This document shows, one piece after another, positions 7,449 through 64,000 of a stretch of DNA of 64,000 nucleotides. The position numbers were made by a program, and so were the translations under genes. Position 1 is the stretch's first letter; each line of letters begins with the position of its first letter. The notes beneath the pieces were generated by a model. The model was not told the origin of the DNA and did no database searches. It worked only from the letters and a program-made list of their open reading frames with translations. Source of the stretch: a virus; the IMG/VR virus record IMGVR_UViG_3300034198_017445, positions 10,335-74,334 of that record; one strand, given 5' to 3'.

Positions 7449-9792
7449 GAATGCTGAACGCGGCGTAACATTCTTGCTTCGTGCAAAGGCGGATCCTAGC
7501 TCGCGCACCGTCATCGAAAGTTTTGGGCATGATCTAAGTTCGGCGCAGTCGCAAATCGACAAGGCTGTCTCTACGACTGCTCGCAATGTCGAGACGGCTG
7601 TCGATGCCCAAAACGCAAGGACCAAGGCTGCGGTGGATGCTTCGATCTCTGAACGGCAGCGTGCTGTCGATAGGTCGATCAAGGATCAGCAGGAGGCTGA
7701 GGAAAAGGCGCTTAATGATCGCGCTTCGGCGATTCGTCAAAGCGAGTCTAAGATATCGGCTATCGAGATGGACCTTGAAAGCAAGTCTCTTGAGGAACTG
7801 GAGGCTATGCGAGAACAGCGGATTGCGCAGCGTCTTGCAAAGGAGGAGCAGAAGTACCTGGAAGCGATGCAGGCTCGCATTGCTGCGGACAAGGCTTACG
7901 AGCAGATTTCTGACGCTGCTCAAAAACAAACGGTCGAGACGGGTCGTGCGTTGTCGAAGGAAGAAATCGACATCATCAAGCAGATCCAGAAAGCTCGCGA
8001 TACCTTGACTCGCGAGGCAGAGGCTTCTGAAAAGCGATGGACTTCGGTGCAAGAAGCGGAGTCAGAACGGCGCTTAAATTCTGCCATCGTCGAAGCCAAA
8101 AAGAAGAAGTCTGTCCAGGACGAGCAGGACGAGGCTGTCAAGGCGTCGCATGAAAAGGTCGAGAAGCACCTGGAGGACATGAAAAACGCACTCAGCGGCG
8201 CTCTGCTTGCTTCTGGTCAGTTGGCGCGTGGTCTTGCTTTCCTCGGGCTCTCTGGCGAGAAGGAAGTCAATAGGCTCACCGAGGGGATCATTAAGTTGGT
8301 TGGTGCCCTGGATGCGTTTGAGGGTTTTGTTGGCACCGTCATCAAGATCGAAAAAGCGTACCGATCGTGGACGGCTGCAACGGTCGAGCAGGTCGCTGCA
8401 GAGCAATTGCTTGCTGCTGCTCGTGCTGGTGGTTCGGCGGTTGGCGCTGGCGTCTCGGGGGCTACCGGGGCTGTTCAGGCTGGTGCGGCAAAACGGGCTG
8501 GAAGCGCAGCGGCTGGTGGGCTCGTTGGCGAGGGTGTTGGTGGGGTTGCTGGTGGTCTTGCTGGGACTGCGGTTGCTGGCGTCGGAGGAAAAATTGCTGG
8601 CACTGGACCGGTTGCTGGTGCGTTAGCTCGGTTGGCTGCGTTTGGGGATAGAGCGAAGGCTTTTGCTGCTCCTGTTGCTAGGGTCGCAGGAGGTTTGGCT
8701 GCGCGAGTCGCACCACCACTGGCTGCGCTTGCTGGTGGTTATGCGTTAGGAAGCGGAATCAGGAACGCATGGGAGGAGTCGTCGATCGAGGACGATGTTT
8801 GGGGTGGTGCAACGAAGCTAGCCAAGAACGTGATTGATATGCCCACGTTCGGCTGGGGTTCGTACATCATGGGCGAGAAGACTTTCGAGACGTCTCGCGA
8901 TCGCAGACTGAAAAGCGAGGACAAGGATTTCAATCAGCGAACGGAAATCCTGAACGAAAAAAACAAAAGGGACGCGGCTGACGAGGAGTCGCTTGTCGCG
9001 CAGACAAAACAGAAACTCGAAATCCTGGAAGCTCAAGCCCAGGTTGAGAAGCATCTTCATGACCTAAAATTCAAGGACATGACGATCGACGAAAAGCGGC
9101 TGGATCTGACTTCAAGAATCGCCGATGCTACCAAGGAGGCTGCTACCGGAGACGAAAAGTCTCATGCTCGTGTCATCGATCTTTTGAACAAAAAACTGGA
9201 GACTGAGCATGCGATTTACTCCGTTCAAAAGACCGCAGCAGTTGAGCAAGAAAACACCGCTAGAAAATTGCTCGATCTCGCGAACGCTAAACTTGAATCA
9301 GAAAAGTCTGCTCACGAGTCTGCCAAGGAACGCTTTGGTGGGATGTCAGCTAGTGAGCAACAGGAAACGATTGACCTGTTTGCAAAGTTTCAGCAGGATC
9401 CTAAGTCGATGGATCCTGAGGCCATGCGAAAGATGGGCGGTCTTTCGAAGTCTATGGATGCCCAGATCAAGGCTGAGAAGTTACGTCGCGCTGATGCGGC
9501 TGGCTTCGATCGAACGCTGGGTGCCAATGACGTAGCCGAAATCGCAAAGCTGGAGCACGAAATCAAAACCAAGTTGGAGGTCGACGTGCAGGCAAAGGCT
9601 GACGTGAGTGTCAAGCTGACGGCTGACTACGAAGCGATCGCTAAAACTGTAAACGAGCAGATCAAAGCCCAATGGAAAGACGTACTCGACTTGATGGCAA
9701 AACGTGTCATGGAAAACGAGTCGTCTATTCAAGATATCCTTAAAAGATTGAAGGATAGAAACATTCGCCTGACCAATGGAGGTATTCCATAA
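7441..9792 (+). CDS. Tape measure protein
   Basis: 783 aa, coiled-coil with an Ala/Gly-rich central part; canonical position. Confidence 0.85.
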   Translation: MAENAERGVTFLLRAKADPSSRTVIESFGHDLSSAQSQIDKAVSTTARNVETAVDAQNARTKAAVDASISERQRAVDRSIKDQQEAEEKALNDRASAIRQSESKISAIEMDLESKSLEELEAMREQRIAQRLAKEEQKYLEAMQARIAADKAYEQISDAAQKQTVETGRALSKEEIDIIKQIQKARDTLTREAEASEKRWTSVQEAESERRLNSAIVEAKKKKSVQDEQDEAVKASHEKVEKHLEDMKNALSGALLASGQLARGLAFLGLSGEKEVNRLTEGIIKLVGALDAFEGFVGTVIKIEKAYRSWTAATVEQVAAEQLLAAARAGGSAVGAGVSGATGAVQAGAAKRAGSAAAGGLVGEGVGGVAGGLAGTAVAGVGGKIAGTGPVAGALARLAAFGDRAKAFAAPVARVAGGLAARVAPPLAALAGGYALGSGIRNAWEESSIEDDVWGGATKLAKNVIDMPTFGWGSYIMGEKTFETSRDRRLKSEDKDFNQRTEILNEKNKRDAADEESLVAQTKQKLEILEAQAQVEKHLHDLKFKDMTIDEKRLDLTSRIADATKEAATGDEKSHARVIDLLNKKLETEHAIYSVQKTAAVEQENTARKLLDLANAKLESEKSAHESAKERFGGMSASEQQETIDLFAKFQQDPKSMDPEAMRKMGGLSKSMDAQIKAEKLRRADAAGFDRTLGANDVAEIAKLEHEIKTKLEVDVQAKADVSVKLTADYEAIAKTVNEQIKAQWKDVLDLMAKRVMENESSIQDILKRLKDRNIRLTNGGIP

Positions 9793-10536: not shown

Positions 10537-11778
10537 ATGGCTACTAAGTATTGGGTTGGTCGGGCTGCTCGCGTCGCGCAAGTTTCCAAGATCGTTTTTT
10601 CGTCTGTGACTGTTTCGGCGACGTACACCATCACCATCAACGGAAAGTCCGTATCGGTTGTAGCAGCCACGACTGTGCTCGCTGATCTTGTTGCTTTGTT
10701 TGCGGGGGCTTGGTCGTCGTCTGCGGAGCCTGAGCATCAAGAGGTGACTCTGGCTGGTCGGTTCGATCCAACGTTGTCTGGCGTGCAGCTAACGTGCAAC
10801 ACGACGGGAGTGGATTTTACTGTCTCTGCATCGGCGACTTCTGGGTCTGCAACTGTCACCACTCCAACGGCAGCATCGGGTCCGAATTTTTGGAACGTTG
10901 CGGGTAATTGGAGTGGTTCGACATTGCCATCGGCAGCAGACGATCTTGTGTTGTCAAACAGCGACGTTTCGATTCTCTACGGGTTGACCGACACGACCAG
11001 TTACGCTTCGCTTACAATCGATGCGTCGTACACGGGAACGATCGGTTTGCCATCAAAGAATGAACGCGGGTATCCTGAGTATCGCACTCAGCACTTGACC
11101 CTCGGTTCGGGTTCTGCGATCACTGTGACGATCGGAAATGGAATCGGTTCGTTTTCTCCAATGATCAAGTTGGATTTTGGGGCGTCGAATGTTACTTACA
11201 CACAGGTTGGGAGTTCTTCGTCTGCTTTCGGAACGTCTTCATCGGCGATTGAACTTCGCACGTCATCGTCTGCGAGCACGTATCGTGTCTACGGTGGTTC
11301 GCTATCTGTTGTCTCTGGCAGCACCGCGACCATCACGACTCTTGATGTCATTCGTCGCGATCAATCCAATATTCCTAACGTAGTTACGTCAAATGCGATC
11401 ACAATCACGACAGCCACGGTCATCGGCGGAAATGTCAAGATCTCGGGACCATGCACGACGCTTGTCGCGCGTGACGGGTCGGAGGTTACTACGGCGCAGG
11501 CTTCCGCAGCGGCGACGGTACGTGTCGGTTCCAGAGCAAGGATCGGATGGGAATCGTCCGGAGGAATCACGACGAAACTGTTCGTAGAGGCTTTCGGGAT
11601 AATCGATTTTGGTCGCGTTGCAACTTCGAAGACAATAGCTGCTTGTGATCTGTATGCCAGCGGTGCGATCTTGGATCCTTTGAACATCGCGACGTTCACT
11701 AATGGCATTGTTTTGCAAGCGTGCCGGTTGGCTGATGTTACTTTGGATGTTGGTATCGGAGTGACCATCAATGCCTGA
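10537..11778 (+). CDS. Tail protein (Ser/Thr-rich, beta-rich)
   Basis: AGGAG upstream; composition; position. Confidence 0.65.
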   Translation: MATKYWVGRAARVAQVSKIVFSSVTVSATYTITINGKSVSVVAATTVLADLVALFAGAWSSSAEPEHQEVTLAGRFDPTLSGVQLTCNTTGVDFTVSASATSGSATVTTPTAASGPNFWNVAGNWSGSTLPSAADDLVLSNSDVSILYGLTDTTSYASLTIDASYTGTIGLPSKNERGYPEYRTQHLTLGSGSAITVTIGNGIGSFSPMIKLDFGASNVTYTQVGSSSSAFGTSSSAIELRTSSSASTYRVYGGSLSVVSGSTATITTLDVIRRDQSNIPNVVTSNAITITTATVIGGNVKISGPCTTLVARDGSEVTTAQASAAATVRVGSRARIGWESSGGITTKLFVEAFGIIDFGRVATSKTIAACDLYASGAILDPLNIATFTNGIVLQACRLADVTLDVGIGVTINA

Positions 11779-29732: not shown

Positions 29733-30041
29733 GTGAAGACTACTATTTTGATTGGCGTGTTGTTGGCAGCGGTTCGGATTTGGCTTGGGTTTAACATCGA
29801 GCCTGAATCGTTTCGCTGGGACCAAGTCTTCAAGGACGCGGCGCACTTGTTCATGGGTGGTCTTGCTGTCGCGTGGTGGTTCAATAGGTATGAGCTGACC
29901 GACGAAGACTGGGACGATACCGAGGACAACAGTGCTCTGTTTGAGGCGCTGACGTGGTGTCTTTTGCAACCGTGGCAATGGTGGTTGTTTTGGTCGCTTA
30001 ACGCGATTGAGGTTGCTGTCGCTGTCCTGAGTCGAATCTAG
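29733..30041 (+). CDS. Small membrane protein
   Basis: Hydrophobic segments; GAGG RBS. Confidence 0.55.
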   Translation: MKTTILIGVLLAAVRIWLGFNIEPESFRWDQVFKDAAHLFMGGLAVAWWFNRYELTDEDWDDTEDNSALFEALTWCLLQPWQWWLFWSLNAIEVAVAVLSRI

Positions 30042-30343
30042 CTTGCTCAGCGGCTTTGTTGCGGAGATGGGTCGGTTACGCATGCCTGCTCGGAGGCGTT
30101 GTTTCTGAGGCGATAGACGCGCGTTCGCTTCGTGCCTGTCCTGAGGCTTTGTATCTGGAATAGAAGCCGCTAGTGAACCTGCCTGGAGGTTTTGTTTCCT
30201 TGACGGAATTGAGTCTGGCTTATTGCCTATCAAGCGGCGTAATTGCTTGGAGTGCGATCCATTTGAGCCTGCCATGAGGCTTTGTTTCGTGGACAGGAAT
30301 TCAGCATGATACAATGCCTGCCTAGCGGCTTTGTTGCTGGGAT
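30041..30343 (+). CRISPR. Orphan structure-conserved CRISPR-like array B (7 units)
   Basis: 28-nt units at 30041, 30084, 30134, 30177, 30225, 30267, 30316; consensus GCCTG-N6-GGC-TTTGTT-N6'-NN; spacers 14-22 nt. Confidence 0.8.
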
Positions 30344-30374: not shown

Positions 30375-30938
30375 ATGGCACGAGTAATTCGTTGGCGGTT
30401 TACGAAGGAGGCTGGTACCAATGGATCCAGTTTTAAGGCCGATGCCATAACCCAGGTGATGATCCCTCGGTTCCTGCGGTACTGGGATGTGGATTTCCAG
30501 CAGTTGACAACGATGGCAGGAACGCCACACGTCACGTTTCGGCTGACGACTCGGACGGTCAGTACGATGTGGACGAACGGTCCGGTGATCCATATAAACG
30601 CCAAGTTCAAATGGGGCACTTCGCTCGCGGCGCGTGAGCAAATGGGACTGTGCCTATGTCATGAGGTTGGTCACTGGTTGTCGCCATCGAATCCGATTCA
30701 CGCTGCCAGTGTTGGAAACGTCATGTTCGCTCAGGTTGGCGATCCGTACCTAAATTGGACGCTGGTCGACATGAAGTGGTTTGGCATGCTTCCGTGGCGA
30801 TCCACCTTACGTCCGTGGCACGAGAAAACGCACTGGTATCCCTTACCAAAGGTTGCAATGGGGCTGTCGGGGCATGAAGATCACGAGATTCTGGAGCCTA
30901 TCGTGCTTGGTTGCGGTAAGAATCATCGAAAAAATTGA
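30375..30938 (+). CDS. Zinc metallopeptidase (matrixin-like)
   Basis: CHEVGHWL....H followed by NVM Met-turn. Confidence 0.7.
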   Translation: MARVIRWRFTKEAGTNGSSFKADAITQVMIPRFLRYWDVDFQQLTTMAGTPHVTFRLTTRTVSTMWTNGPVIHINAKFKWGTSLAAREQMGLCLCHEVGHWLSPSNPIHAASVGNVMFAQVGDPYLNWTLVDMKWFGMLPWRSTLRPWHEKTHWYPLPKVAMGLSGHEDHEILEPIVLGCGKNHRKN

Positions 30939-40099: not shown

Positions 40100-40647
40100 C
40101 GAAGCGCTCGAAAAAGCATAAACAAAAAGCCGGACTGTCACCTGCTCTAGAACATACGACGGGCGGAAATCGCGAACCGCTTGAGTCACGTAAGAGCCAG
40201 ATAGCGACAGGCGTTAAACCCCAAACTGAGGATGAGGCGTATCGGGCATTCTGGCCAGAGTTTGCTCCAGGCATGGAGAAAATAGCCGAGTCAACAGGGA
40301 GGGGTGGAGCGTATCAACGTATGTCGGATATGGCACTGGCAATCCGTGCCGTGTCCGACTCGTTTCCAGTTCCTCGGGCAGCGGTGGAGCGTTTGGTGTT
40401 CGATGTCATTCGGCAATCGACCGATCCTTCGCTTACCCTGGAACAGAGGCAGCGGTCGCAGAAACTGCTGTCTCGCATGATCGAACGGAACGCGGCACCG
40501 AAGGGGTTGCCCGACCAACTGCAAACCTTGCCTGGGCAAGTACTCTCTATTCAGCAGGTGCTCGACGTGATCGATGTGGACGATAACGATATCGACCTGC
40601 GGGACTTCAAACCGGCAATCGGATCCGATGAGGATTATGCCGAATGA
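40096..40647 (+). CDS. Putative terminase small subunit
   Basis: Coupled directly upstream of the large subunit. Confidence 0.5.
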   Translation: MTKRSKKHKQKAGLSPALEHTTGGNREPLESRKSQIATGVKPQTEDEAYRAFWPEFAPGMEKIAESTGRGGAYQRMSDMALAIRAVSDSFPVPRAAVERLVFDVIRQSTDPSLTLEQRQRSQKLLSRMIERNAAPKGLPDQLQTLPGQVLSIQQVLDVIDVDDNDIDLRDFKPAIGSDEDYAE

Positions 40648-42167
40648 CTGCGGTCGCTGGCTGGACGGATCAGTTCGGATCGGAAAGCGTACATTCGCAC
40701 GAGCGCCAAAGTAACGCAGCCAGGGAGTTGTATCTGGACGCACAGGCGATGCGTTCTCCGTTGTTGCTGGCTGAACGGTTTTCTCGTGGCGAGTGGAAGC
40801 GTGCGCGGCACTTGCAGTTCATCGACTGGGAATTCAGAAATCTGCTGAAGTCTCGGGATATCGACCTGCTGATCATCAAATGCCCTGTCCGTCACGGAAA
40901 GAGCCAGTATCTAGCGCGGTGGGCTCCTGCTTGGTACCTGCTCCGGAATCCGCACAAACGGGTCATGATCTGTACCGCGACGGCTTCGCTGGCATCGTCT
41001 CACTCGCGTTGGGTGCGGGACAAGTTCCATGAGTTGGCTTCGCTCATGCAAATGAAGGGCGTTGATCCTACGCATGCTTCTGTGAAGGACTGGGGTATCG
41101 ACATTCCTGGCGGGGGTGGTGCGTTGGCTGCAGGTGTCGGCACGTCCATCGTCGGCTTCGGCGCGAATTTGCTGATCATCGACGATTACCTGAAAGACGC
41201 AAAATCGGCGTTCTCTCCAAAGATCCGGGACGACCAATGGGACTGGTTTCTGTCGACCAGTTCGACGCGGTTGGAGCCTGGGGGGAAGTTAATTCTTCTC
41301 TGTACTGCTTGGCATTCGGACGATCTCATCGGTCGCATCTTGAAACACAGAAAAGAGCTAGATATGCGGGTGCGTTGCGTCACTCTGCAGGCGTTGCGTG
41401 ATTCGTCGTATGGCGTTCACGATCCTTTGTGTCGGCAGGATGGCGAGGCGCTTTGGCCTGAGAGATGGCCTGTCGAGGTCATGGAGCGTCGGAAGCGCCA
41501 GGCTGGTATGTGGTGGCACTCGATCTACCAGGGAACGCCAAAGGGGACGGGGCTTTCATCCTGGCCTGATGCGTACTTCTCGAATATTTGGGCGGATGAC
41601 GACGAGTGGCCTAGTCCGGAGGAAGGCGTTCTGTCGGCTTCATTCCTCGATCCATCGAAGGGGAAGAATTCGAAAGTCGGGGATTATTCCGCGATCGTGT
41701 CTGTGGTTTACGCAAAGGGTAAGCTGTGGGTGGATTCCTCGATCGATCGTCGATCCGTGCAGGTGATGGTTCGGGAGTGGATGGAGTTCAACCGGGCGCG
41801 TCGTATCGCTTTCCAGGGGGTCGAGGGTAATGCGTGGCAGGATTTGCTCGCTGAGGACTACGTCGAGGAGTGTTTGCGGCACGGGTATCAAATCGATCCT
41901 CCTGAATGCGTGATTCACACGACGAACAAAAACCTGCGGATCGAAAAGATCGGGAAGTGGTTGGACGGTCGGTTGCTTCGGTTTCGTCGGACGGCTTCGA
42001 ACGAGTTGCTCCTTGCCCAGATGCGGGAGTTTCCGTTCGGGCAATACGACGACGGTCCGGACGGTCTGGAGGCTGCGATCGCGCTGCTGTGTCGATCTGT
42101 CGATGCGTTGTCGGATGCTCACGACATCGAGGAGAGCGATGCGACGGTTGGTACCAGACCGCTATGA
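40644..42167 (+). CDS. terL: Terminase large subunit
   Basis: PVRHGKS, LLIIDD, TAWH..D, FLDPS..GDYSA, DDGPD. Confidence 0.92.
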   Translation: MTAVAGWTDQFGSESVHSHERQSNAARELYLDAQAMRSPLLLAERFSRGEWKRARHLQFIDWEFRNLLKSRDIDLLIIKCPVRHGKSQYLARWAPAWYLLRNPHKRVMICTATASLASSHSRWVRDKFHELASLMQMKGVDPTHASVKDWGIDIPGGGGALAAGVGTSIVGFGANLLIIDDYLKDAKSAFSPKIRDDQWDWFLSTSSTRLEPGGKLILLCTAWHSDDLIGRILKHRKELDMRVRCVTLQALRDSSYGVHDPLCRQDGEALWPERWPVEVMERRKRQAGMWWHSIYQGTPKGTGLSSWPDAYFSNIWADDDEWPSPEEGVLSASFLDPSKGKNSKVGDYSAIVSVVYAKGKLWVDSSIDRRSVQVMVREWMEFNRARRIAFQGVEGNAWQDLLAEDYVEECLRHGYQIDPPECVIHTTNKNLRIEKIGKWLDGRLLRFRRTASNELLLAQMREFPFGQYDDGPDGLEAAIALLCRSVDALSDAHDIEESDATVGTRPL

Positions 42168-46009: not shown

Positions 46010-47758
46010 TTGAGCGTTAAAAACTGGGTCTATGGTGGTAAGGTTCCTACGCCACAAGAGGCTGTCGATGAGGCGATCTTCACGGCGCACAAGTATCGAA
46101 ACAAGCTGTGTGAGTTGGAGCTGGAAAAACGGAAGCGGCACTACGATTTGTTGCGTCGGCTTGCTCCTGAGTTTGTTGCTGCTGAGGAAACGGTCGCGAC
46201 GTTGGAGGCGGCGCTGGGTGCCTGTCGCGAAAAGATCCAAGCGGAACGGGTGAAGCAGCGGACGAAAACTCCGACTGGGTGCAAGACCTGGATTGCCGAA
46301 AGTGCGGACATCAAATCGCGGTTAAAAGATGCGCGTGCAGTCTTGAAGGCTGCGAAGCATGCGGCTTACGATGATCCTGCTGTCAAGGCTGCGATGGATG
46401 CGAACAGCGAGCAGCATAAATCCGAGTGTGCTCAAGCCAAGCAGGAGTCCGGGCTGTACTGGGGGACCGAAGCGGTGATCCGTGATTCGTGTCGATCGTT
46501 TGCGAGTGGTGCTCCACCGAAGTTTGCGCGGTATGAAGGGCGCGGTCAGTTGGCTGTCCAAGTCCAAGGCGGGATGGATTGTTCCAAGGCGATCGATGAG
46601 AACACGTTGGTCTACATCGTTGGCGAGGGTCGGAAGCGAACGGCAAAGGTTCGCATTGCTTCGGACGGTGGGCGACCGGTGTTCGCGGATCTACCGATCG
46701 TGTTCCATCGGGACTTGCCTGACGGCGCTATCAAGTGGGCGTTCCTGCAGAAGCGGATGCGTGCGAACAAACCGAAGTACAGCTTGCGTCTTGCGATCGA
46801 CGTTGCTGATCCTGTCGATGTGCAGGTTCCTCCGGGTGAGGTTGCGATTCACGTCGGCTGGCGAAAGCACGGGGACGGATTAAAGGTCGTGACTTGGCTC
46901 GGGAGCGACGGCGAGAAAGGTTCGCTCGTGCTTCCGGCTTCTCATTGCGAGGACTATCTCAAGCTGGACAAAATCAAGTCGGAGCGTGACATCGAATTCG
47001 GAAAGGCGATTGATCATTTGCGTGGGTGGCTGGAGTGTCGTGGCGATGTGCCTGAGTTCTTGGAGGAGGTTCGATCGCACTTGCATGCGTGGAAGTCTCA
47101 GAAGCGGTTGGCTGCTCTCGTGGTGGCTTGGCGCGATGCTCGCTTCGATCCGTGGGATATTGATATTTTCGAGTACCTGGAGGCGTGGCGAAAGAAGGAC
47201 AAGCATGCATGGCAGCACGATGCTCGGTTGCGGGAGCGAATCGCTGGTCGTCGCAAAACGATCTACCAGACGTTTCTGTGTGGTCTTGCTCGGAGGTACG
47301 GAGTGGCGATCGTTGCTCCGATCGATGCGAAGGAGTTGACCGAAAACAGCGAGCCAGAAGACTTGACGGCGGATCCAACGTTGCAGCATCGGCGTGCGAA
47401 GTGGGCTGCTGTATCGACGCTGATTCAGTACGCTCGCGAAAAATGGCCTGAACGCTGCATCGAAGTGGACGGTGCGAACATGAGTCGCCAGTGCATGCGG
47501 TGCGGTCACGTCAACGAACCGCAAGGCAAGCGGGTGCAGTGCCATGGTTGCGGTGCTACTTGGGATGTGGACATCAACGCGGCTACGGTTATGCTCGAAC
47601 GTGGTCAGGCTGCGGCGCGTGATGGTGCTCTTGATGCGTTGGTTGAAGCGAAGGAAAAGAAAGCCGAGGCTGCTCGCGAGAAACTTGCAAAGATGATACA
47701 GGCGCGGCGTGATGCTTCTGCTCGCAAGCGTGCTGAGATGGAGGGCAGCGAGGCTTAG
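46010..47758 (+). CDS. Cas12m (type V-M)/TnpB-like RNA-guided protein, RuvC probably inactive
   Basis: AHKYRNKLCELE, long coiled coil, GLYWGT, PPKFARYEGRGQLAVQVQGG; RuvC-I VAIHVGWR (His for Asp); no Glu at RuvC-II (IVAPID); Zn finger CMRC/CHGC; RuvC-III DVDINAA. Confidence 0.85.
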   Translation: MSVKNWVYGGKVPTPQEAVDEAIFTAHKYRNKLCELELEKRKRHYDLLRRLAPEFVAAEETVATLEAALGACREKIQAERVKQRTKTPTGCKTWIAESADIKSRLKDARAVLKAAKHAAYDDPAVKAAMDANSEQHKSECAQAKQESGLYWGTEAVIRDSCRSFASGAPPKFARYEGRGQLAVQVQGGMDCSKAIDENTLVYIVGEGRKRTAKVRIASDGGRPVFADLPIVFHRDLPDGAIKWAFLQKRMRANKPKYSLRLAIDVADPVDVQVPPGEVAIHVGWRKHGDGLKVVTWLGSDGEKGSLVLPASHCEDYLKLDKIKSERDIEFGKAIDHLRGWLECRGDVPEFLEEVRSHLHAWKSQKRLAALVVAWRDARFDPWDIDIFEYLEAWRKKDKHAWQHDARLRERIAGRRKTIYQTFLCGLARRYGVAIVAPIDAKELTENSEPEDLTADPTLQHRRAKWAAVSTLIQYAREKWPERCIEVDGANMSRQCMRCGHVNEPQGKRVQCHGCGATWDVDINAATVMLERGQAAARDGALDALVEAKEKKAEAAREKLAKMIQARRDASARKRAEMEGSEA

Positions 47759-47768
47759 GGTATGGTTC

Positions 47769-49351
47769 TCCTGCTCATGGGAGTTGTTCATGAGATAATG
47801 ATCTGGAATATGCTAATGCCTATCAATCGGCTTTGTTGCTTGAAGACGAACTATGTGGCTGATCGGTGCCATCGTTACCGAAAATATGGGTCTGTTGCGT
47901 TATCGCCAATCGCGAGGCTTTGTTTCGCTGATATCGATGCAGTTCACCGCCTGCTCGGAGGCTTTGTTTTCGAGATACAACGACGTGGTTGCTTTTGATT
48001 TTATGCCTGCTAGGTGGCATCGTTACATTGGCTCGAACTTGAATTTCATTCATTGCGTGCGATGGGGCATCATTCCATTGACATACCCGTAAGCCTGCTC
48101 GGAGGCGTTATATCGGAGACAAAAAGCATACGGGGAGACTATTTGGACTGCGATTGATTTGCCTGTCGTGAGGCGTCGTATCGCGAAAACGAGATTGATC
48201 ACATGATTCCGCCTGCGGACCGGCTTCGTTGGTCCGGCGCAAGGACATCGTTGCCTGCTCAGAGGCATTGTGTCTGAGACGTTCGCGAGAACTTCGATCT
48301 GTCGCCTGCCATGAGGCTTTGTGTCATGGACGGAGTCCATAATGCCCGAAAGTGAAACCAAAAACATACCGATCAGCTCGGTCACAAATGCTCTGTGGGA
48401 GTGCCGTGATTGCGGCTGCGAGTCGAGCGATGTGTACTGGTTCAGTTGTTTGGGTGCGAGGCTCAAGAAGCCGAGGTGCGCGTGCTGCCATGAGAAGGCG
48501 GTCGTCTCTGGTTCGTCTGTTTACGAAGAAGGGACTATTGAAATGTCTGGTTGCCAGCAACGGGTGTACGGTAGGCATGTTCGGGGAATCTACTTGTTTC
48601 GGGAGGAGAAGTAACTTGCTTGTGCCTGTTCGGAGGCATCGTATCCGTGACGACCACTGTTTTACCCGCCTGCGCTGGGGCGTCGTTTCGGTGAGTGTGA
48701 CTACACAATCTCCTGCGCGGTGGAGTTGTAACCGTGGCCAGATTAGCGATTTTGCTTTAAGCCTGCATGGAGGCATCGTATCTATGACCCCATTGTGCCG
48801 TGTTCATTGCCTGCTCGGAGGCGTCGTATCCGAGATGAAACATTTGCTATCTCGTTTTCATTGCCTACCGTGAGGCGTTGTTTCATGGATCCGACCATAG
48901 CTTCCGGCGTGGCTTTGTAGCGTCGATGGCCTGATTGCGTGCGCCTGCTTGGAGGCTTTGTTTCCTTGGCTCAATACGATCAGTGAGAATTTTGCCTGCT
49001 CAGTGGCGTTGTAACTGCGATCCAGGATTTGGTTGGCGTATCGCCTGCTTGGAGGCTTCGTTTCCTGAACATGATGCATCGCTGCTCAGTGCCTGCTCAG
49101 CGGCTTTGTTGCTGGGATGAAAAGTCACTTTGCCATCTATCGCCTGCGGACCGGCGTGGCTGGTTCGACGTCAGCCATTTTTTGTAATCGTCACGAAACT
49201 GTTTCATGACGGTTTTGTCCTGCGCATCGGACTTGTTGGTGCGACAACGCGGAAAATGTGGAAAGTATTGATGGTGCTCGGATGAAATTGGAATCGTCAC
49301 GAAACTATTCTGTGACGTGTTTTGCCTGCTCGGAGGCTTTGTATCCGTGAC
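47769..49351 (+). CRISPR. Structure-conserved CRISPR-like array A (26 units, split by a small ORF)
   Basis: 28-nt units at 47769, 47818, 47857, 47905, 47949, 48005, 48055, 48093, 48161, 48211, 48253, 48304, 48624, 48668, 48711, 48761, 48809, 48863, 48900, 48943, 48994, 49043, 49091, 49142, 49218, 49324; covarying stem and pseudoknot. Confidence 0.85.
48342..48614 (+). CDS. Small Cys-rich zinc-finger-like protein embedded in array A
   Basis: GGAG RBS; CRDC...CACC; fills the gap between units 12 and 13. Confidence 0.6.
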   Translation: MPESETKNIPISSVTNALWECRDCGCESSDVYWFSCLGARLKKPRCACCHEKAVVSGSSVYEEGTIEMSGCQQRVYGRHVRGIYLFREEK

Positions 49352-51554: not shown

Positions 51555-51878
51555 ATGTTTGTGGAAATTGAGGTCAGTCTTTGGATCGTGCATTCCAGTG
51601 GATGCGGTCGGGTACAAAGCACGATGTTCAAAGCCAAGAAGACGTTTCTTCGTCCATGCGTGCCTGAAGTTGGTTCTCTGTTTCAGGTCGATGGAACCAA
51701 CGGAAACGGGGTAAGTACGCGGGTCGCCGATGTTGTCTGGCATACTGGGAAACGGGATTTTGTGGAGGTCTTGACTACTCAGATCGTTGTTTTTGGCGAC
51801 GAGACCGACGAGGACCGGACTGTCTACCTTAAGACGCTTACGGCTGAAGGTTGGAAGTGTGACGAGGGGACATCATGA
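51555..51878 (+). CDS. Hypothetical protein
   Basis: Follows a promoter motif. Confidence 0.55.
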   Translation: MFVEIEVSLWIVHSSGCGRVQSTMFKAKKTFLRPCVPEVGSLFQVDGTNGNGVSTRVADVVWHTGKRDFVEVLTTQIVVFGDETDEDRTVYLKTLTAEGWKCDEGTS

Positions 51879-52402
51879 CTCAAGAACTAAAAATCAATCG
51901 GGCACCATGCACGAGCTGCCCGTATCGAAAAGACGTTCCAAGCGGTATCTGGGTCAAAGAGGAGTACGACAAGATTTTGCCATACGATGGCGAGATGTGG
52001 GTTCAACCACGGGGCGTGTTTCTATGCCATCAGAACGATGGTTCGCTGTGCCGTGGCTGGCTGGATTGCCATGGCGACAATCTGCTTGCTGTGCGGCTGT
52101 TGTGCTCGCGTGGCGATGCGACAAGCGCGGCGATGATCAAGGCGTTGGACGAAGGGCCTGCGGTCGCTGTGTTCAATAGCGCGGCAGATGCGTCGAAGCA
52201 CGGCAGGAAAGCGATCAGGAAACCTGGGAAGCGGGCGCAGGTGTTGATGGATTCAATCACTCGCAAGCGTGGCAAGCTGTGCATCCATGCGGACAAGTCT
52301 TGCCGGTGCCATGGCTACCAAAAGGATCCGAACGATGCATCTCTGTGTACTTGTGGCTGTCCGTTGGATTTACACGTTGTTGAAAAGGTGGAAGCAAAGT
52401 GA
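51875..52402 (+). CDS. DUF6283-like Cys-rich protein
   Basis: PCTSCPYRKDVPSGIW..EY.K...YD, FLCHQ, LCRGW. Confidence 0.75.
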   Translation: MTQELKINRAPCTSCPYRKDVPSGIWVKEEYDKILPYDGEMWVQPRGVFLCHQNDGSLCRGWLDCHGDNLLAVRLLCSRGDATSAAMIKALDEGPAVAVFNSAADASKHGRKAIRKPGKRAQVLMDSITRKRGKLCIHADKSCRCHGYQKDPNDASLCTCGCPLDLHVVEKVEAK

Positions 52403-63419: not shown

Positions 63420-63547
63420 GGGTCGGCGGCGTGGTGTGCAACACGCGCAGCCTGAGGCTGTGATTCCCTGGTTCAATGAACCGACTGAAAAGCGGGATGA
63501 ATTGAATCAGTGTGAATTTGATGCAGGTTCGAATCCTGTCCGATCCA
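63420..63547 (+). ncRNA. tRNA-like element 2
   Basis: GGGTCGG/CCGATCC acceptor stem; GCGT/ACGC D-like arm; GCAGG-TTCGAAT-CCTGT T-arm; no canonical anticodon arm; T-run follows. Confidence 0.55.
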
Positions 63548-63573
63548 TTTTTTTTAATCAGTGGAGTTTGGGA

Positions 63574-64000
63574 ATGGAAAAAACGATCTATCACGGACGC
63601 TACGTTGCATCGAGCAGCGGGGCGATTTCAAACGCGGAAACTGGGCGAGTGCTTCGCGGCGGGAGAACGTCGAAGGGGTACTTGTCGGTTTGTCTCTATG
63701 ACGGGTCGAGTCCAAAGCGACCGAAGTCTTTTATGATCCATCGTCTTATCGCGGAGGCGTTCTTGGGTGATGGTGATGGCAGGCAGGTCAATCACAAGAA
63801 CGGCGATAAAACGGACAACCGTCTTGAGAATCTCGAATGGGTTACGCTTCAAGAAAACATTGATCACTCTCGGCAGGTGCTCGGCAAGACTCAGCACGGC
63901 GAGACAAATTCGCGATGTAAGATTCCTGCGGATGTGGTGGTGCAAATTCGAAAGAGGGATCGGACGGCGCGATCCTGGGCGGAAGAACTTGGTTGCAACA
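63574..64000 (+). CDS. HNH homing endonuclease (runs off the window end)
   Basis: Translated by hand: GYLSVCL...IHRLIAEAFL...VNHKNGDKTDNRLENLEWVT. Confidence 0.85.
   Translation, partial: MEKTIYHGRYVASSSGAISNAETGRVLRGGRTSKGYLSVCLYDGSSPKRPKSFMIHRLIAEAFLGDGDGRQVNHKNGDKTDNRLENLEWVTLQENIDHSRQVLGKTQHGETNSRCKIPADVVVQIRKRDRTARSWAEELGCN

Follow-up and report, generated by a model that had tools for sequence, protein, structure and literature searches.

A Cas12m homologue in a phage genome and two arrays of putative crRNA handles that conserve structure rather than sequence

Can a CRISPR array persist once its repeats have stopped repeating? The question is raised by a 64-kb stretch (hereafter the window; 53% G+C) of a single 74,334-bp virus record, IMG/VR IMGVR_UViG_3300034198_017445, in which a gene for a Cas12m homologue is followed by 26 short hairpin-forming units, no two of them alike, and a further seven such units lie far upstream. 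The elements under study are the following, with positions given in the window.
46010..47758, + strand: cas12m, 582 aa, TTG start, stop codon at 47756-47758; type V-M effector homologue with His281 at RuvC-I
47769..49351, + strand: array B, 26 mutually distinct 28-nt units, putative CRISPR RNA (crRNA) handles separated by short spacers
Array B, starts of units 1-13, + strand: 47769, 47818, 47857, 47905, 47949, 48005, 48055, 48093, 48161, 48211, 48253, 48304, 48624
Array B, starts of units 14-26, + strand: 48668, 48711, 48761, 48809, 48863, 48900, 48943, 48994, 49043, 49091, 49142, 49218, 49324
30041..30343, + strand: array A, seven units, ~16 kb upstream of cas12m, between genes 29733-30041 and 30375-30938
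Array A, unit starts, + strand: 30041, 30084, 30134, 30177, 30225, 30267, 30316

All 33 units lie on the + strand and share one ungapped 28-nt layout (33/33), GCC-TG-6-nt stem-GGC-6-nt loop (mostly NTYGTN)-6-nt stem'-AC or AT, with a register shift of 1-3 nt applied to two of them (30225 and 48055) in the alignment. The initial annotation of this DNA had described that layout, with 26 units behind a Cas12m-like gene and 33 in total, and it was borne out without indels. Every unit is distinct and no stem pair recurs between units. Mean pairwise identity is 0.62, falling to 0.45 in the stem columns and rising to 0.76 in the others; the columns conserved in at least 90% of units (C2, C3, T4, G12, G13, T16, G18 and T19) are unpaired or belong to the short helix, while the stem columns are near random. 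The first unit of array B begins 10 nt after the cas12m stop codon, and 31 nt separate the end of array A from the start codon of gene 30375.

The units also stand well clear of their background. Scored with a covariance model with filters off, the 33 units reached 25.8-38.9 bits (array A, 26.3-38.9), and the next best match on either strand of the 64 kb scored 13.8 bits (E 0.36). The model found no dispersed solitary unit elsewhere in the window and none upstream of cas12m within it, and no further units were found in the first 10 kb of the genome. Methods that rely on identity or on known families were silent: Tandem Repeats Finder reported nothing at either array (no dedicated CRISPR finder was run), and a scan of the window at Rfam gathering thresholds returned no family. 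The near-identical direct repeats and ~36-nt spacers by which a V-M array is usually recognized are not found among the 33 units.

What the units do conserve is a fold. We scored the pseudoknotted structure [[[..((((((]]]......)))))).. across the 33 units, or 297 pair cells, and found standard pairs in 93.9% of them, compared with 68.6 +/- 1.8% in 500 shuffles, none of which reached the observed value; sliding the partner columns by 1-3 positions reduced pairing to 35-45%. Both sides had changed in 73 cells, against 20.5 expected and again with 0/500 shuffles reaching that number, and covariation was present in all six stem pairs. The initial annotation had noted that the stems differ while staying complementary, an impression that these counts uphold. 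The 3-bp helix between P and P' covaries as well: 26 units have GCC/GGC, three have TCC/GGA, and GGC/GCC and ACC/GGT are found in one each, the latter a compensatory variant belonging to array A. The exceptions are two units with GCT/GGC, which form a G.U pair, and unit 48055 with GCG/GGC, in which the third pair is broken. Among paired cells, G:T or T:G occurs 23 times and A:C once. Because this asymmetry favors G:U so strongly, the fold is selected in the transcript of the + strand, which is also the cas12m strand, rather than in duplex DNA or in a transcript of the opposite strand. The repeats conserve structure, not sequence.

These figures sit badly with the notion that the units are a dead and decaying leftover of a once normal V-M array, which we regard as very improbable. 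Neutrality predicts pairing near the shuffled mean rather than the observed value, and no excess of compensatory cells; neither is the ratio of G:U to A:C expected under decay. Eight columns have stayed at least 90% conserved as the stem columns became saturated, and the cas12m ORF (open reading frame) is intact, with its family-invariant residues kept. Decay would fit the lack of an adaptation module, since neither Cas1 nor Cas2 was found in a record that CheckV rates 100% complete. It would also fit the trailer ends of relatives' arrays, where repeats are diverged and spacers shortened, and the target searches described below, which found none.

Three other origins for the units were discarded. 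Coding repeats are excluded because the periods vary and are not divisible by three. The 23:1 ratio of G:U to A:C rules out DNA-level palindromes or template-switch repair, and attC-like or repetitive extragenic palindromic (REP)-like elements are discounted by the homology of the units to V-M repeats.

That homology came from a covariance model, R1, built solely from the window's own units. On other contigs, R1 matched these 28 nt just downstream of cas12m homologues of 27-54% identity.
L010-L014: R1-positive metagenome contigs, matches downstream of cas12m homologues
L018: R1-positive contig of a Pirellulaceae metagenome-assembled genome (MAG), cas12m with a 3-repeat array
L002, L003/4, L005, L155, L163, L166, L176: R1-positive IMG/VR contigs

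In these relatives the 28 nt form the 3' part of an ordinary 36-nt repeat, in which GCC follows an 8-nt AT-rich head whose last bases are often CAAT; the repeats of one array do not differ from each other, and their period is 71-75 nt. In the relatives' loci taken together (82 distinct units), the 6-bp stem covaries (98.2% paired) and GCC/GGC is invariant. Significant covariation, and the same element beside cas12m homologues, is what the initial annotation had anticipated of a model built from the units. A further instance is Virus Rctr197k in GenBank, where a CRISPR annotated by the depositors directly follows a cas12m homologue and the repeat ends in CTCAGA...TCTGAG-AC, with a 6-bp stem also seen in the window's units. 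In that genome (L001, KX853510.1; 5935-9351) the homologue is labeled only "similar to transposase" and the adjoining 1.5-kb CRISPR carries no type; a second, unrelated CRISPR lies at 619-873 beside a transposase-like gene. Other routes to relatives differed in yield. Scanning IMG/VR with a single Cas12m protein gave no match, and a pattern of three closely spaced units gave only chance matches among the matches listed; a tighter two-unit pattern then succeeded.

The layout also agrees with characterized scaffolds. The Cas12m2 scaffold has a 6-bp helix, C(-22..-17)/G(-8..-3), which stacks on a short stem and is capped by a closing G.A pair that involves A(-2), and the protein reads the handle backbone rather than its bases (PMC10442227); the units match this published layout, as the initial annotation had proposed. 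We infer that the conserved G5 and A27 of the units sit where the closing G.A pair of Cas12m2 would be. In GoCas12m, a handle of ~30 nt lies within a crRNA of ~50 nt, and published mature Cas12m crRNAs measure ~50-60 nt with a ~30-nt handle and an optimum heteroduplex of 17 bp (PMC10442227, PMC11013384). Because R1 finds the same 28 nt in repeats beside cas12m homologues, and because the layout agrees with the Cas12m2 and GoCas12m scaffolds, homology identifies each 28-nt unit as a type V-M crRNA handle, equivalent to the 3' part of an ordinary 36-nt repeat.

By structure and profile searches, the product of 46010-47758 is likewise identified as a Cas12m homologue, with a non-canonical RuvC. 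Its best structure match is PDB 23vw_A, "CRISPR-associated DNA-binding protein Cas12m" (E 3.5e-45, residues 21-532), followed by Cas12m2 (8hio/8hhl, E 7e-32) and 8pm4 (E 3.6e-25), and Pfam recognizes the Cas12f1-like_TNB zinc ribbon (PF07282, E 9e-09). Homology to Cas12m covers nearly the whole protein, including the RuvC/TNB zinc-ribbon C-terminus, and TnpB models match weakly and at the C-terminus only, in keeping with the initial assignment of the effector as Cas12m-like. The closest homologues, P0002, P0003 and P0004, are 66%, 64% and 56% identical, the first being encoded on a 91-kb contig, and a GGGAG motif lies 8 nt upstream of the TTG start. H281 and D519/D521 are invariant across 23 close homologues, giving a RuvC pattern of H-?-D in which His281 is first and Asp521 third. 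The canonical Glu position aligns to A436/P437, and D439 (Asp in 16/23 homologues) lies two or three residues on. Described Cas12m triads fall into the clades HEK/HQK, HDD, DED/NED and DND, and Cas12m2 of the HDD clade binds and silences DNA without cutting (PMC10442227, PMC11013384). Because the His at RuvC-I is invariant and the nearest described class is HDD, binding-based interference is to be expected here, and the present Cas12m is probably non-cutting.

If the units are V-M handles, how does the array differ from its relatives, and where did the difference arise? Within-array identity is 0.87-1.0 in the relatives vs 0.62 here, and the period is 71-74 nt vs a median of 48.5 nt from start to start. 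The 8-nt repeat head is gone, save for a weak T-rich, G-poor bias at -5..-1. A median period of 48.5 nt is close to the length of a finished Cas12m crRNA. Intermediate forms occur in other viral contigs, so the initial impression of an array standing alone did not hold. L163, L177 and L166 carry normal arrays whose far ends have diverged, fully paired units at 48-64-nt periods, and the ten units of L176 differ from one another. The 106-kb IMG/VR phage contig L160 has intergenic orphan clusters of diverged units at 9030-9311 and 11251-11437, with a period of 45-59 nt, and also has a cas12m and a normal array elsewhere (L005). The arrays of the window are an extreme case, not an isolated one; diverged forms recur among phages.

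Some relatives show units placed differently. One to three units lie just upstream of cas12m in L010 (370-397), L015 (467-494) and L011 (7811-7946), lacking the 8-nt repeat head and, in L011, closely spaced; these may be an autoregulatory leader mini-array. In L007 (3977-4004), L008 and L009, a 54%-identical homologue is followed by one solitary unit and then by ordinary genes, with no array. Such loci bring up the proposal that the handles act on the phage's own transcripts, with Cas12m binding or cutting the units to punctuate polycistronic mRNAs and set the stability or translation of flanking genes. Candidates for such regulation would be the gene after array A, cas12m itself and an ORF inside array B.
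48342..48614, + strand: 90-aa Cys-rich ORF with two Cys clusters, ATG at 48342, between units 12 and 13

The few units upstream of cas12m and the solitary ones after it would suit this proposal, as would the facts that unit 48304 abuts the GGAG and ATG of the 90-aa ORF, that array A stops 31 nt before gene 30375 and that the proven selection covers the handle only. For punctuation, however, one handle would suffice, yet tandem runs of 26 and 7 are present, spaced like mature crRNAs; scattered solitary copies are missing from the genome, the next model match being the one at 13.8 bits; and relatives that share the handle have ordinary spacer-bearing arrays. We consider action on the phage's own transcripts unlikely.

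The segments between units bear on another alternative. Within the arrays they measure 7-40 nt, mostly 14-23 nt. Were the arrays RNA decoys, in the manner of RNA anti-CRISPRs (Racrs), the units, as mimics of the handle, would titrate a host Cas12m or control the phage's own effector, and the segments would carry no meaning. Phage repeat mimics that inhibit Cas effectors exist (PMC10651486), some of the segments (9-11 nt) are too short to guide, the target searches found none, and the Pirellulaceae MAG contig shows a cas12m with a three-repeat array. Against a decoy stand the clustering of most segments at 14-23 nt, which is neither minimal nor random, and the gene of the cognate effector, which lies on the same strand and ends 10 nt upstream, an arrangement in which relatives have genuine arrays; nor was a host V-M system identified. 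On balance, a decoy array appears improbable, slightly more so than action on the phage's own transcripts.

The reading that we favor, with some reserve, is that the locus is the type V-M system of a complete 74-kb phage and holds a streamlined, non-adaptive, fixed crRNA array that is still under selection. Because only 10 nt and no terminator separate cas12m from array B, the two would be co-transcribed. Cas12m would then cut the transcript just 5' of each handle, as characterized orthologues do, so that each unit would yield a handle with the 14-23-nt guide that follows it, near the length of a mature Cas12m crRNA. With no Cas1/Cas2, no new spacers would enter and nothing would homogenize the repeats. 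Processing of a normal array discards the 5'-most 8 nt of each repeat and, of each 36-nt spacer, the half that lies distally; these parts would have been deleted, shrinking the period from ~72 to ~48 nt, and the handles would have drifted apart under selection that kept both helices and the conserved unpaired bases. The resulting ribonucleoproteins, if their likeness to the HDD clade is a guide, would bind DNA bearing a flanking PAM (protospacer-adjacent motif) and block transcription or replication while leaving the DNA uncut. The targets are likely to be host genes or competing mobile elements, and a multiplexed silencing function for the array is plausible. The spacers are 57% A+T compared with 47% for the genome, which fits foreign or promoter-derived sequence and proves nothing. 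One may also speculate that divergent repeats guard the array from recombinational deletion.

Several observations weigh against this fixed, selected crRNA array. Selection was demonstrated for the handle, not for the spacers. Three segments are only 9-11 nt long and eight are 14-16 nt, below the reported optimum heteroduplex of 17 bp, and the weakly T-rich, G-poor 5 nt before each unit (-5..-1) are possibly repeat remnants, in which case the guides would be shorter still. The second RuvC residue is not placed with certainty, given A436/P437 at the canonical Glu and D439 nearby. The target searches were negative as well: the phage's own genome contained no protospacers at up to 2-3 mismatches and no enrichment of 9-12-nt seeds, and array B searched by BLAST against 301 genomes of the Pirellulaceae family stayed at chance level (best E 7.8e-4 per genome, with two candidates scored per genome). 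All spacers against 1.5 Mb of related loci gave 8 hits vs 1-6 in shuffles, also chance level, with two of the 8 falling in loci picked by the 301-genome BLAST, and two 20-nt spacer heads had no hits in IMG/VR. These negatives are weak because the guides are short and neither a host genome nor a PAM was at hand; the link to Pirellulaceae comes from one MAG contig. The public runs containing the locus comprise one DNA metagenome and no RNA run. Of the RNA-guided binding and silencing system proposed in the initial annotation, homology supports the part that makes the units V-M crRNA handles, while the searches returned no targets for its guides.

A more ambitious version, which we put forward tentatively and think rather doubtful, is that the locus represents a distinct type of phage V-M array. 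Its crRNAs, of mature length and set head to tail, would be heritable and non-adaptive, and diversity among the handles would itself be selected, besides the fold, to resist recombination and repeat-based recognition. Divided between two arrays in different transcription units, 33 guides would steer a non-cutting Cas12m, during infection, to an unchanging set of genes in the host or in rival elements and so silence them. If this were so, identity-based CRISPR finders would systematically miss a class of natural multiplexed CRISPR interference.

How does the locus compare with systems already described? Type V-M systems (MmCas12m2, GoCas12m and MsCas12m; PMC10442227, PMC11013384) share with it the effector family, the 6-bp pseudoknot helix, the short second stem, the closing G.A pair, the 3' AC, the guide placed 3' of the handle and, as in the non-cutting HDD clade, a His at RuvC-I. 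Unlike them, it is phage-borne and has 33 distinct units of 62% mean identity that lack the 5' 8 nt of the 36-nt repeat, spacers of 14-23 nt rather than ~36, and two arrays, of which one lies ~16 kb away from the gene. As a type, V-M is also marked by PAM-dependent DNA binding without cleavage, self-processed pre-crRNA and the lack of a tracrRNA. MvCas12m of myxophage MV-1, described by its authors as the first phage Cas12m, combines a single consensus repeat and eight ordinary spacers with a canonical D-E-D RuvC (bioRxiv 10.64898/2026.09.14.751636). It is likewise a phage Cas12m with an adjacent array and no cas1/cas2/cas4, and protospacers were not found there either. Array-bearing cas12m homologues also occur, besides MV-1, in Virus Rctr197k and many IMG/VR contigs.

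Two further kinds of array resemble the present one in part. LalCas12r-CRISPR of Thermus Lalka phages has a degenerate-repeat array 15 bp after a type V effector and no adaptation module; there, one repeat suffices for a guide and ~18 nt of the spacer are used (bioRxiv 10.64898/2026.04.20.719267). It differs in its effector family, active RuvC nuclease, 29-bp repeats, 31-33-nt spacers and known targets, which are integrative elements. Mini-arrays, solitary repeat units, cr-like RNAs and Racrs (10.1101/2023.03.03.530964; PMC10651486) derive from repeats but lie outside normal arrays; many are degenerate, some are viral, and their spacers are short or match in part. They number from a single unit to a few, mostly imitate the system of a host and have not been reported for V-M, in contrast to the 33 units that accompany the phage's own effector here. 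Racrs are defined by having no cognate effector, and here cas12m lies 10 nt upstream of array B on the same strand; an autoregulatory mini-array, with one to a few units and a spacer resembling in part the cas promoter or 5' region, does not fit either, as no unit lies upstream of cas12m in the window and no own-genome spacer or seed match exceeds chance. In a non-exhaustive literature search we found no V-M array with structure-only conservation of its repeats or with compaction to mature-crRNA length.

Synthetic parallels and functional ones exist. Engineered non-repetitive guide arrays carry many guides without long identical repeats. TldR is a nuclease-dead, TnpB-type repressor with a fixed guide, carried by one long omega-type RNA, and we claim no homology to it.

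The locus indicates that a CRISPR array can persist without sequence repeats, held together by a fold that the effector recognizes. Since finders based on repeat identity should miss such arrays, some phage Cas12/TnpB-like genes taken for "orphans" may in fact have an array. Read as a mutational scan of the Cas12m handle, the 33 natural variants here and 82 more in relatives show that C2, C3, T4, G12, G13, T16, G18 and T19 must stay fixed and that the 6-bp helix is free in sequence; such variants should be useful when Cas12m guide arrays are to be designed without repetition. That the period has shrunk to the length of a mature crRNA offers an evolutionary readout of the functional parts of an array. 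If the guides are active, the phage would encode a multiplexed silencing program that involves no DNA cutting.

The genomic setting is that of a phage. Hallmark genes include a large terminase (40644-42167), a helicase, a ParB/methyltransferase and a sliding clamp, and a near-identity search with 20 kb against the GenBank phage collection gave no match. Nearly all long ORFs lie on the + strand, whose composition is skewed across the genome (G 31%, C 22%). ARAGORN predicts a permuted transfer-messenger RNA (tmRNA)-like gene at 63458-64000 on the + strand, running past the window end, where the Rfam gathering scan is blank. Inside array B, the 90-aa ORF has its GGAG directly after unit 48304 and its stop codon 9 nt before unit 48624; it belongs to no Pfam family, and the related loci examined contain no relative of it. 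Of ten ORFs next to the arrays, a single one matches Pfam, a DUF6283 protein (E 6e-28) at 51875-52402 on the + strand.

The end of array B carries additional hairpins, listed below.
49156..49188, + strand: terminator-like hairpin and T run, a 9-pair stem then TTTTTTGTAAT, overlapping atypical unit 49142
49189..49211, + strand: second hairpin element, copy 1, CGTCAC-11 nt-(A/G)TGACG
49295..49317, + strand: second hairpin element, copy 2, with the sixth base pair restored

Unit 49142, the 24th, has an atypical loop (GTGGCT), and its 3' half can pair into an alternative 9-bp hairpin before six T. The terminator-like call holds at the consensus level only, the fold of 49140-49192 being no better than shuffles. 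The second hairpin element precedes each of the last two units, with an ATGACG or GTGACG arm and a T-rich tail, and its copies form a direct-repeat family (D6) of 55 nt at 73% identity. The segment 49290-49356 folds with z = -3.08, a stability matched by 0/200 shuffles.

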